Notes under the pieces: generated by a model
The model's input: the letters and a program-made list of their open reading frames with translations, nothing else
Databases searched by the model: none
Told to the model about the DNA's origin: nothing
From: Promethearchaeota archaeon
Lineage (GTDB): Archaea > Asgardarchaeota > Lokiarchaeia > Sigyniarchaeales > SOKP01
Reading direction: 5' to 3'
DNA: 36,282 nt
Assembly (NCBI GenBank): GCA_030610785.1
Contig: JAUWRB010000003.1
Coordinates: 1-36,282, forward strand
Position numbers and translations under genes: made by a program
Shown: piece by piece, positions 4,060 to 27,280 of the stretch
Position numbering within the stretch: the first letter of the stretch is position 1
How the letters are laid out: the number at the start of each line of letters is the position of its first letter

Positions 4060-4584
4060 ATGACGAACGCTCAAGAGAATAATCCAAATATCAAAATAAA
4101 AATTGTTAAAGATGAAAATTTATTTGATTTAAATTTATGTGCTAAAGATTTTATAGATCTAATAGATAATTTTGAAAAAAAATTTTATAATAAGAAATTT
4201 TTCGTTTTAACCGCTTACTATAACAAGGTTTTGGCCGGAATTTTGGTCGCTGAAGATAAAAGTCAAAAGGTCGATTCATTAGAAAAAATTCTTCCTACAA
4301 TGTGTTTACAACTATTATTCGTGAATTCTAATTTTAGAAGTAGGACTCTTGGAAAAAAATTATTAAAAGCGTTCTTAAATATTCAAAAAGAAAAGGGGGT
4401 AGCCATTATTTACATAAAATTACCACAAAAATACAAAAAAGGCATTATTTTTTTCCAAAAAAATAATTTTCATCAAGTAGGGATGGTTAGAAATAAAATT
4501 ATTTTAGAACGATATTTGTGGAACGATTATGGCATAAGAGATTGCCAATTAATAGGAAATAATTTTAATAACATGTTTGGTTAG
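4060..4584 (+). CDS. GNAT-family N-acetyltransferase
   Basis: LFVNSNFRSRTLGKKLL acetyl-CoA motif A; FFQKNNF motif B. Confidence 0.75.
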   Translation: MTNAQENNPNIKIKIVKDENLFDLNLCAKDFIDLIDNFEKKFYNKKFFVLTAYYNKVLAGILVAEDKSQKVDSLEKILPTMCLQLLFVNSNFRSRTLGKKLLKAFLNIQKEKGVAIIYIKLPQKYKKGIIFFQKNNFHQVGMVRNKIILERYLWNDYGIRDCQLIGNNFNNMFG

Positions 4585-4854
4585 ACTGATACTTAAAATT
4601 GATAAACGATTATCTTTTGGATTTTTTCGAACTCTTTTCTGATAATGGAGCTTACCGTCCTCTAAGTTAAAGGTTGTGTCAAAAAATTATCTTAGCCCGA
4701 GGAAATGTCGTCCTACTTCGATATACTGTCTCTTATCCCATATGTTAATGCTCGCAAAACATTTTAACCCGAAATCTAGTAGATGTTTAATATAGCGGGC
4801 GCCATTCCAAAAGATTTTGAATAATAAAAATTTTATTTTACAAACAACTTAACA

Positions 4855-4896
4855 TGTAATCCAGTATTCAAAAGTTGTAATCCAGTATTCAAAAGT
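4855..4896. repeat. Perfect 21-bp tandem duplication (TGTAATCCAGTATTCAAAAGT x2)
   Basis: Two identical adjacent copies at 4855-4875 and 4876-4896, with no spacer. Confidence 0.9.
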
Positions 4897-5100
4897 TATT
4901 ATCGTTAATTTTCTTGTTTTTTCTTTAAAGCATAAAGAAGGATCTTAAATTAATATCTATTATTTGAAATTAATAATTAACGTAATATCACAATATGAAA
5001 AATGATTATTTATAATCACTATATATCAAATCTATTCACGTAATATATTATAATAATAATTAATAAAAGGAAATTAATTTAACAAATATCATTTTTAAAA

Positions 5101-5925
5101 ATGGTACATAAAATGAATAATGGTATACAAATAATTAAATACATGGATTATAATAAAAGCGATTTTAGAAATCCTATTGCTTTTATTGGCTGTCCTGGAA
5201 TTGCCGATGTCGGAAAATTTGCGTTAGATTCATTAATAGGTCAACTTAATGCTAAAAATTTTATGGATATTATTTTTGACGATTATCCTGCAGGAGCTAT
5301 AGTTGATAATAGTATATTATCTGCTCCTAAAGCTGAAATTTTATTTTGGAAAGATCCTAGTAAATTACGGGATATCTTATTAATAACGGCTGATTCTCAA
5401 AGTTTAACTCCGAAAGGGATTTATAAAATATCTAATTTTCTTACTGAAATATTGTATCAATGTGGGGTAAAATTGATTATTGCTGTAGGGGCTTATCCTG
5501 TAAGTAATCGAAAAATCAATAATAGACTTCCAAAAATATATATCAGCTCTACAAATGGGGAACTATTAGATAATTTTTTAATAAAAAATAGATGCGAAAA
5601 AATTCAAAAAGGTGTAATTATTGGCGCTAATGGTTTGATTCCTACTTTAGCTAAAGCTCGATTTGATATTGAGGGCTTAGTCTTTCTTGCTGAAACTGAT
5701 AATATGGCAATTGTAAATGATGATATCACGGATTTAAGGGCATCTATCACGCTTTTAGAAATGCTTAAAAAATCGTTTACATTACCTATAAAAAAAAAAT
5801 ATTCCCTAGAAAATATTGATAATATCACTAAGAATCTCCAAATTAAAAGAGACCAATTAGAAAAAGATCTTGACGCCTTTAAACTGGTTGAGACTGATGA
5901 TAAGCGTAAATCATTATATATTTAA
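5101..5925 (+). CDS. PAC2-family proteasome assembly chaperone (PbaA/PbaB-like) with C-terminal HbYX motif
   Basis: GCPGIADVG, ITADSQ, IAVGAY and IIGANGLI motifs of the PAC2 family; ends in LYI. Confidence 0.88.
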   Translation: MVHKMNNGIQIIKYMDYNKSDFRNPIAFIGCPGIADVGKFALDSLIGQLNAKNFMDIIFDDYPAGAIVDNSILSAPKAEILFWKDPSKLRDILLITADSQSLTPKGIYKISNFLTEILYQCGVKLIIAVGAYPVSNRKINNRLPKIYISSTNGELLDNFLIKNRCEKIQKGVIIGANGLIPTLAKARFDIEGLVFLAETDNMAIVNDDITDLRASITLLEMLKKSFTLPIKKKYSLENIDNITKNLQIKRDQLEKDLDAFKLVETDDKRKSLYI

Positions 5926-11065: not shown

Positions 11066-11425
11066 ATGAAGCTTTTAGCAGAAAAATGTAAAGATTTTGA
11101 TGATTTTTCTATTTATATAACTCTCTTTAAATTATATAAAAGCTATCTCTTATTGATTTCAGACCAAAAGGAAATGGGCCTTGGAAATGTCTCTTTAGGG
11201 AATCCCCCTATAATTAACGGATTGAAATCGTTGTCAGCGTCTTATAAATTATTTGGTATTAATAAGAAATTATTAAGTACAATTATCGTTGAAAGAGCCT
11301 CATATCTTCTTAAAGCACCTGTATTACTTCTATTATTTATAAAAATGAAAAAAAAAGAAGAAGATATCGTAAAATTTATAGTAACTTTTTTAAACGATAT
11401 TTTAACAAAATTAGAAAATAATTAA
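11066..11425 (+). CDS. Putative PAC4/PSMG4-like proteasome assembly chaperone
   Basis: 119 aa with the pattern strand-strand-LGxxxLxxP...SxxLFG...helix-PVLL, resembling the PAC3/PAC4 fold; recognised by eye only. Confidence 0.5.
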   Translation: MKLLAEKCKDFDDFSIYITLFKLYKSYLLLISDQKEMGLGNVSLGNPPIINGLKSLSASYKLFGINKKLLSTIIVERASYLLKAPVLLLLFIKMKKKEEDIVKFIVTFLNDILTKLENN

Positions 11426-11452
11426 TGATTTTAGGAAATGATTTTAGGAAAT
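11424..11452. repeat. 13-bp tandem duplication (AATGATTTTAGGA x2) just downstream of tRNA-Leu
   Basis: Copies at 11424-11436 and 11437-11449, plus a partial third copy. Confidence 0.8.
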
Positions 11453-11469
11453 CATCAAGATTATAAAAA

Positions 11470-11644
11470 TGCAGAGAGTGGGAATTTCGAATATTCGAAT
11501 ATTCGAATAATTTTTCGAACCCACGAAGAACTAATCACCGGATATCTTATTCATTTAAGGATCTTGAGTCCGGCACCGGTAATCGTGCGTTTCTCACGCA
11601 AGTATATGTTTACTAACACATTGACCAGGCTTGGTTATCTCTGC
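11470..11644 (-). tRNA. tRNA-Leu(CAA) with three introns (21/22: 11579-11620; 37/38: 11544-11562; 59/60: 11484-11513)
   Basis: Spliced 84-nt product: GCAGAGATAACCAAGCCTGGTCAACGGTGCCGGACTCAAGATCCGGTGATTAGTTCTTCGTGGGTTCGAATCCCACTCTCTGCA. Perfect acceptor stem, anticodon stem CCGGA/TCCGG, T stem GTGGG/CCCAC, Leu-type D-loop and variable arm, A73. Junctions fit BHB motifs. Confidence 0.92.
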
Positions 11645-11664
11645 AGGGGATACAATTATAGTTA

Positions 11665-11892
11665 TTAATTTAAAAACATCATTACGATAAACATTACTCC
11701 CATCATTCCAAAAAGGAATATCATTTGTATTCTACTTCTTTTTTTTTGCTTTTTTTCTTTTCCGAGATATTGATCTCGACATGTTTGACTACAAAATTTT
11801 TTTTCTGCGGACATGGCTTTTCCACATATAGGACAATGTAAATGCGGACCCCATTTCTTTTTTATTTGGTCTTTCCATGAAGATTGAGACAT
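11665..11892 (-). CDS. DUF2116-like zinc-ribbon protein with C-terminal transmembrane helix
   Basis: PHLHCPICGKAM...FCSQTC, a basic stretch, then a hydrophobic C-terminus. Confidence 0.8.
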   Translation of the reverse strand: MSQSSWKDQIKKKWGPHLHCPICGKAMSAEKKFCSQTCRDQYLGKEKKQKKRSRIQMIFLFGMMGVMFIVMMFLN

Positions 11893-27175: not shown

Positions 27176-27280
27176 AGCGGGGTGGGCTAGACAAATATTT
27201 ATCTCAAATATCGGGCAAACCTGGTTTATGCCGCAGGGCTCATAACCCTGAGATCGTTCGTTCAAATCGAACCCCCGCTA
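27176..27280 (+). tRNA. Initiator tRNA-Met(CAT) with a 29-nt D-loop intron (about position 15/16; 27191-27219)
   Basis: AGCGGGG/CCCCGCT acceptor stem with A1-U72; anticodon arm CAGGG-CTCATAA-CCCTG with three G-C pairs; T arm GTTCG-TTCAAAT-CGAAC. Removing the insert restores the D arm GGCTAGCCTGGTTTATGCC (76 nt mature, no encoded CCA). Confidence 0.92.

Follow-up and report, generated by a model that had tools for sequence, protein, structure and literature searches.

The window analysed here, a stretch of 36,282 nucleotides, is contig C126 of a MAG of 2.97 Mb in 271 contigs, which is 78.7% complete with 4% contamination. The host is an AT-rich, Loki-type Asgard archaeon from marine sediment and belongs to Promethearchaeota, the NCBI phylum in the Asgard kingdom Promethearchaeati. 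The aldolase gene next to the locus is 82-91% identical to genes of MAGs mostly labelled Promethearchaeota or Promethearchaeia, including a 'Loki' bin. The locus itself holds a tRNA-Leu(CAA) gene, and our analysis confirmed that this gene is cut into four exons by three small introns (Table 1). A 76-aa ORF covers it in antisense. Just upstream of the tRNA gene and on the same strand lies another ORF (11665-11892, minus strand), and its 75-aa product matches DUF2116, a treble-clef zinc finger, with 61.1 bits against a cut-off of 26.8.

Table 1. Features at the tRNA-Leu(CAA) locus, in positions of the window.
Feature	Position	Strand	Description
tRNA-Leu(CAA) gene	11470..11644	-	Whole gene, 175-nt precursor body; ARAGORN call after in-silico splicing
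Exon 1	11621..11644	-	24 nt; acceptor 5' strand, D stem 5' strand, D loop to position 21
Intron 1	11579..11620 (precursor 25-66)	-	42 nt; position 21/22 (D loop); relaxed to near-canonical BHB
Exon 2	11563..11578	-	16 nt; position 22, D stem 3' strand, anticodon stem 5' strand, anticodon CAA, G37
Intron 2	11544..11562 (precursor 83-101)	-	19 nt; canonical position 37/38; relaxed hBH-like motif
Exon 3	11514..11543	-	30 nt; position 38, anticodon stem 3' strand, short variable arm, T stem 5' strand, T loop to position 59
Intron 3	11484..11513 (precursor 132-161)	-	30 nt; position 59/60 (T loop); canonical hBHBh'
Exon 4	11470..11483	-	14 nt; position 60, T stem 3' strand, acceptor 3' strand, discriminator A
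T run	11465..11469	-	Five T right after the discriminator; likely archaeal terminator
TATA-like stretch	11661..11676	-	A/T-rich, ~18-33 nt upstream; possible promoter
76-aa ORF	11438..11668	+	Open reading frame antisense to the tRNA gene

An earlier note, made from the sequence alone, had proposed that 175 nt of the minus strand reduce to an 84-nt Leu cloverleaf after removal of 42, 19 and 30 nt. ARAGORN calls the product spliced in this way as Leu(caa), and the proposal holds. The acceptor stem is a perfect 7 bp. The anticodon CAA, the discriminator A, a 3-bp D stem and a variable region of 11 nt are all traits of tRNA-Leu. The variable arm of a class II tRNA-Leu is present in a weak form, because the variable stem consists of two pairs and a T-T mismatch. 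It is one base shorter than in most orthologues described below, and among these L025 alone has a similarly weak arm. The exons contain 53.6% G+C, compared with 28.6% in the introns and 28.5% in the contig. The T run opens the 3' flank in most orthologues too, and the TATA-like stretch is not conserved in the contigs X6 and X7 of other studies, which diverge upstream of 11644. The terminator and promoter readings of these two stretches are weak; A/T runs do not stand out at 28% G+C.

The unspliced gene escapes tRNA finders. ARAGORN made no call for it in the window, nor in 11440-11680 with intron options. The Rfam tRNA model RF00005 did not match the unspliced gene at its 29-bit gathering threshold, and it gave no match there in the genome-wide search at E<=10 or when 321 nt around the gene were searched with permissive settings. 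This miss is expected because the model lacks these insertions. The suspicion that standard annotation would probably miss the gene is therefore correct for ARAGORN and Infernal/Rfam, which were the tools tested, even at E<=10. ARAGORN was also run on the eight subsets of intron removal. With all three introns removed it returned Leu(caa) of 84 nt, and with introns 1 and 3 alone removed it returned Leu(caa) with a 19-nt anticodon-loop intron; the remaining six subsets gave no call.

A blind solver, which enumerates BHB-like deletions and tests each with ARAGORN, was applied to the gene without the coordinates of the earlier note. It found five valid solutions among 685 combinations. All five were Leu(caa), and the best consisted of the same introns as those in the earlier note. 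The solver found no solution in 300 random 175-nt windows of the genome and none in 300 interior shuffles in which the acceptor ends were kept. ARAGORN is tolerant in the D arm, as deletions of ~29 nt almost anywhere in the Met gene of the window gave calls. For this reason, the borders of intron 1 rest on orthologues that have no intron 1 and not on ARAGORN.

Junctions were classified as BHB-type when two 3-nt bulges were split by a 4-bp helix, or when a relaxed form (hBH, HBh' or BHL) was present. All three introns of the Leu(CAA) gene have such a junction. In intron 1, the central helix GGTC/GATT forms 4/4 pairs, two of which are G-U, and is bordered by two 3-nt bulges. Its flanking helices are 4 bp on the intron side (h') and 2 bp on the exon side (h), and its register is unique. 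Intron 3 has the central helix TTCG/CGAA with 4/4 pairs, the 5-bp T stem as h and an h' of 3 bp, which is a canonical BHB. Intron 2 can be placed in five sequence-equivalent registers because ATCC is repeated. The 37/38 register is the only one of the five that gives a BHB-like motif (CTCA/TAAG with 3/4 pairs, h 7 bp, h' 1 bp). These results agree with what had been described from the sequence, namely introns at 21/22, 37/38 and 59/60 with two near-canonical motifs and a relaxed one at 37/38 whose register is ambiguous. As a background, 400,000 random sites of the same lengths were drawn from the genome. Motifs as good as those of introns 1 and 3 occurred there at a frequency of 2.9e-4, and motifs as good as that of intron 2 at 1.9e-3.

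The whole precursor folds with -54.5 kcal/mol (z -5.1). In the folding ensemble, support is confined to the acceptor and T stems and to the central helix of intron 3, with probabilities of 0.92-1.0. The central helix has an ensemble probability of 0.001 in intron 1 and 0.004 in intron 2. Forcing the central helix of intron 1 costs 4.4 kcal/mol, and 7.4 kcal/mol when both bulges are kept open. The cost rises to ~12 kcal/mol when the motif is forced together with the GTG/CAC outer helix of the earlier note. The 2-bp exon-side helix of intron 1 is in competition with the D stem.

Orthologues were sought beside the aldolase gene in 68 related loci, by a search for exon 1 with at most four changes and exon 4 with at most three changes within 450 nt. 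A syntenic orthologue of the Leu(CAA) gene lies beside the same aldolase gene in 22 of the 68 loci; the other 46, some of which have a short flank, gave no match under these search criteria. Introns were placed in the orthologues by a degenerate template with BHB refinement, and all 23 genes, the 22 orthologues and that of the window, splice in silico to a tRNA that ARAGORN calls Leu(caa). One intron is present in four genes, two in 17 and three in two (the window and L017), and none of the genes is intronless. Position 21/22 is occupied in 16 genes, 32/33 in 12 and 37/38 in 11. Introns at 58/59 or 59/60 occur in four genes, and the variable region is interrupted in one, L031, where 28-29 nt are inserted between positions 40 and 48.

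The structure of the tRNA is maintained across these genes. When the 14 different sequences that result from splicing are compared, pairing is kept in 319 of 322 stem cells, and compensatory changes are found at 9 of the 23 stem pairs. The spliced sequences are 80-92% identical to that of the window, and the D-loop introns are 50-64% identical. All 16 D-loop introns pair with the invariant GGTC, eight with 4/4 pairs and eight with 3/4. Seven orthologues have no D-loop intron, and their exons 1 and 2 run on without a break, so that intron 1 can be delimited with no recourse to ARAGORN. Its limits, when set to give back this unbroken sequence, fall together with the 4-bp helix and its two 3-nt bulges. 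The Rfam tRNA model matches three of the six orthologous loci tried (L018, L061 and L031) over its full length with 41.8-50.9 bits. These three are single-intron genes without a D-loop intron, and the ends of the matches agree with the coordinates of the spliced models. The model did not match L036, L017 and L025, which have D-loop or multiple introns.

Contigs assembled from sequencing runs of four other studies show where the locus varies. Along the gene, the X5 contig has the same sequence as the window. In X6 and in X7, 13 letters are changed over 11300-11644; 11 of the differences are in the 3' flank (11369-11459), two are in intron 1 (11593 and 11612), and there is none in the exons. X9 spans 11378-11598 only. 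It has the change at 11593 in common with X6 and X7, its other listed changes are in the 3' flank, and its exons are unchanged. The contigs of X6 and X7 cease to resemble the window at precisely the first base of the gene (11644), which implies a rearrangement with its break at this base and a different upstream neighbour of the gene in these relatives. In both cases, the contig of the gene runs into unrelated sequence upstream of 11644, and a different contig matches the window from 11652. The compared contigs are DNA, and the listed sequencing runs that contain this stretch include no RNA run on record.

The enzymes required for splicing are encoded in the same MAG. Two EndA paralogues exceed the Pfam cut-off, on contigs C135 and C83, which are of matching composition. 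The C135 protein (201 aa) is closest to the alpha subunit of Aeropyrum pernix EndA (3p1z_B, E 2.5e-35). Their alignment passes without gaps through the crenarchaeal-specific loop, where the counterparts of K44 and R46 are conserved, and it also shows counterparts of Y125, H133, K164, R157 and W183. In Aeropyrum EndA, Y125, H133 and K164 are the catalytic residues, and K44 is needed for cutting D-loop and relaxed introns (PMC3241643). In the C83 paralogue (215 aa), the segment that corresponds to the catalytic His lacks this residue, as would be expected for a structural beta subunit. An (alpha-beta)2 EndA with an L1 loop has been reported for Asgard archaea (PMC5829648). The two proteins may assemble into an (alpha-beta)2 heterotetramer of broad specificity. 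The earlier note had argued that such a gene needs a broad-specificity endonuclease, and relaxed or non-canonical motifs can be cut by the (alpha-beta)2 type with the L1/crenarchaeal loop or by the epsilon2 type. The EndA here has two paralogues, and one of them carries the loop lysine to which the Aeropyrum enzyme owes its broad specificity. RtcB is present on contig C222 (PF01139, 476.6 bits). Its match is split into C222:4087-4233 and 4260-5423 (plus strand), corresponding to profile positions 1-47 and 47-426, and a frameshift, a misassembly or an insertion may account for the split.

The gene, its cloverleaf, the motifs at its junctions, the conservation of its exons and the presence of the enzyme genes are observed. 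Our data indicate that this is very probably a functional Leu(CAA) gene, the precursor of which would be spliced by EndA at three BHB-type introns and joined by RtcB. According to this model, the gene would be transcribed as a ~175-nt precursor. EndA would then cut inside both 3-nt bulges of the BHB motif at each of the three introns, namely the relaxed D-loop motif at 21/22, the relaxed motif at 37/38 and the canonical T-loop motif at 59/60. RtcB would join the four exons, and CCA would be added after splicing, because it is not encoded at the 3' end of the gene. We infer that the gene is transcribed, that its precursor is cut at just these bonds and that the tRNA is aminoacylated, and any order of splicing is likewise inferred.

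The gene might instead be a tRNA pseudogene, that is, a former Leu(CAA) gene with at least one insertion that can no longer be removed, most plausibly the one in the D loop. Its function would then be supplied by another gene or by wobble reading of tRNA-Leu(UAA). The BHB of intron 1 is thermodynamically disfavoured and the variable arm is degenerate, as a pseudogene would allow. The MAG is also incomplete, and a second, intronless Leu(CAA) copy could be located in its missing part. The earlier note had advised a check for another Leu(CAA) gene; the 78.7%-complete MAG showed neither a second copy nor a further intact anticodon arm with CAA in tRNA-like surroundings. Contig C73 breaks off inside a Leu-type tRNA gene, whose 5' end makes up its last 29 nt (plus strand). 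The acceptor and D arm of this gene are like those of Leu(CAG) on C220, and it may be another Leu isoacceptor. Two further 'Leu(caa)' calls by ARAGORN were rejected after inspection of the anticodon arms and of G3-U70 by eye, and read as Ala(CGC) and Arg(GCG) with D-region insertions. The pattern of conservation speaks against a pseudogene. The exons are unchanged in X6, X7 and X9 while the flanks and intron 1 vary, and the stems covary across 23 orthologous genes of which none is intronless. The D-loop intron is present in 16 of the 23 and keeps its pairing with GGTC despite the low identity of its sequence. The exons hold their G+C content in a contig of far lower G+C. No other Leu(CAA) gene was found in the MAG, and together these results make a pseudogene improbable.

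A functional gene could also handle one or more of its insertions in another way. EndA may cut at other bonds, the introns may be removed in a fixed or chaperoned order, or the D-loop insertion may be kept in a fraction of the molecules. The low predicted probabilities of the motifs of introns 1 and 2 would be in accordance with this. A recent preprint also describes a substantial minority of Asgard D-arm insertions without a canonical motif, and notes that splicing had been demonstrated for none (10.64898/2026.10.13.758758). On the other hand, the borders that restore the contiguity seen in the orthologues are exactly those marked by the 4-bp helix and two 3-nt bulges, which speaks against cutting at other bonds. 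Folding gave no support for a rescue of the intron-1 motif by an ordered removal. When introns 2 and 3 were removed first, the probability of the intron-1 motif was still 0.001, and splicing order alone therefore brings no rescue in silico. We consider such other handling very improbable and retain splicing at the three BHB-type junctions.

The 76-aa ORF over the tRNA gene is most likely a spurious gene call, as the earlier note had assumed. Its exact product is found in a public protein collection, in a cluster of two members without a name. Pfam gave no family for it at the cut-off, the best score being 17.5 bits against 22.9. Thirteen of the 22 orthologous loci have an antisense frame that stays open through the whole gene, and in the other nine it is broken by stops. 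Although the open frame and the database entry are what a plus-strand protein-coding gene would show, it is scarcely credible that the ORF is such a gene and that the tRNA-like features are incidental, since conservation tracks the exons and stems of the tRNA and not the reading frame, the lengths of the introns differ by non-multiples of three, and a chance cloverleaf was obtained in 0/300 controls.

The Leu(CAA) gene is one of many interrupted tRNA genes in this genome. Standard tools find 14-15 tRNA genes in the ~3-Mb genome. An anchor scan, based on the T arm and acceptor closure, gave 31 candidates. Eight that were not tRNA-like were dropped by eye and two alternative starts of one gene were merged, which left 22 anchored candidates, and three genes from other tools brought the census to 25. 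Five of the 25 candidates are 71-73 nt long, and 20 are 99-224 nt long. Nine of the 22 anchored candidates have a T-loop insertion of 28-33 nt at about positions 58-60, each with an internal hairpin (contigs C33, C41, C44, C86, C126, C199, C222, C231 and C270). The census is limited to precursor lengths and T-loop insertions, because ARAGORN is permissive and the genome-wide intron solver left the isotypes of most other genes ambiguous. The extensive non-canonical interruption of tRNA genes that had been predicted for this lineage is apparent from these counts.

Several of the other genes have features of their own. An initiator-type tRNA-Met(CAT) gene of 105 nt is located in the window at 27176-27280 (plus strand), with A as its first base and T as its last acceptor base. 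It has an insertion of ~28-29 nt in the D arm, for which the best BHB-like option among several registers has a central helix of 4/4 pairs and weak flanks. ARAGORN missed this gene, and Rfam matched it at model positions 9-63 only. The candidate tRNA gene at C33:2042-2265 (plus strand) has a precursor of 224 nt, which implies ~150 nt of intervening sequence; it has a tRNA-like 5' end and a T arm with a 33-nt insertion. The T-loop insertions on C86 and C199 are in different tRNAs and have a motif of ~15 nt in common, which hints at a common origin.

These observations have consequences for the annotation of related genomes. Neither ARAGORN nor the Rfam tRNA model detects the apparently sole Leu(CAA) gene of this MAG, which is covered by the gene call of a hypothetical protein. 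Many tRNA genes of Loki-type genomes are likely to have been overlooked in the same way. The absence of tRNAs from such MAGs should not be taken as gene loss or as incompleteness.

The gene fits a pattern that is already published for Asgard archaea, in which heavily interrupted tRNA genes are known. In complete genomes of Atabeyarchaeia and Freyarchaeia, 92-95% of the tRNA genes are interrupted and more than half have several introns (2024, PMC11291895). The preprint of Goswami et al. (2026) covers 90 Asgard genomes and reports up to five insertions per gene, with an average of 0.91 insertions per gene in other Asgard families (10.64898/2026.10.13.758758). The Leu(CAA) gene resembles the tRNA genes of Atabeyarchaeia and Freyarchaeia in that it comes from the same superphylum, has several BHB-type introns and is accompanied by a two-paralogue EndA. 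It also resembles the published Asgard genes in general, as far as these sources describe them. Positions in the D arm and T arm are frequent there, D-arm insertions are missed by annotators, and splicing is deduced from sequence. The published Asgard work, in the parts drawn on here, centres on Atabeyarchaeia and Jordiarchaeia/Freyarchaeia, whereas the present gene is from a Loki-type MAG of marine sediment. The words 'Loki' and 'Prometh' are absent from the main text of the preprint. Literature searches for Loki-specific reports turned up none that describes tRNA genes with several introns in Loki-type genomes.

The earlier note had regarded triple-intron tRNA genes as best described in Thermoproteales. 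This view is out of date, given the up to five introns per gene in Asgard archaea (PMC11291895; 10.64898/2026.10.13.758758). In Thermoproteales, three introns are the recorded maximum per tRNA gene (PMC4033280, reviewing Sugahara et al. 2007, 2008). Their genes are similar to the present one in having up to three BHB introns, non-canonical intron positions and an (alpha-beta)2 EndA with the crenarchaeal loop (PMC4033280, PMC3241643). They differ in that they belong to another phylum, and to hyperthermophiles with G+C-rich genomes. The introns of Thermoproteales form sequence families across tRNA genes ('transposition'), whereas in this MAG one possible shared motif was noticed, that between the T-loop insertions of C86 and C199. 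Another similar case is the tRNA-Sec of Lokiarchaeota, which has a 31-nt T-loop intron (Mariotti et al. 2016, PMC4989117). It is alike in lineage, in the use of the T loop and in size class, compared with the 30 nt of intron 3 and the 28-33 nt of the insertions in the MAG. It differs in that it has a single intron and is another tRNA, and D-loop or multiple introns are not described in the passages of that article drawn on here (PMC4989117). With the Leu(CAA) gene, a trait already documented for Asgard tRNA genes, the presence of several introns, is extended to a marine lineage of the Loki type, and the current understanding of the splicing mechanism is left unchanged.

The 23 orthologous genes with their differing intron sets are a small natural series for the gain and loss of introns at one locus. 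The Leu(CAA) locus might represent ongoing intron turnover within Loki-type Asgard archaea, with some introns born from local copies of the gene, although we regard this as rather unlikely. The idea is based on five intron positions with one to three introns per gene among the 23 genes, on a clear case in L025 and on a borderline one in intron 3 of the window. If it is true, local copying would be one route by which intron DNA arrives, a question that the preprint raises as open (10.64898/2026.10.13.758758). Copying of a gene's own exons was rejected as a general rule for these introns, because only one of 37 distinct introns, that of L025, beats shuffles at p<=0.05. The gene of L025 (4214-4352, minus strand) has a 32/33 intron (precursor 64-90) in which 12 nt of the gene's D-loop exon recur exactly, a length reached by 0/500 shuffles. 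Inspection by eye lengthens the copied stretch to 17 nt, so that it runs into the first bases of intron 1, and by its sequence the 32/33 intron looks like the product of an intragenic duplication. In intron 3 of the window, at most 7 nt in a row match the exons of the same gene (shuffle p 0.052). This intron consists largely of three tandem 8-nt units that repeat the palindromic TTCGAA of the T loop. The last copy of TTCGAA provides the 3' strand of the BHB central helix, and the palindromic T-loop hexamer alone supplies the central helix of this intron.
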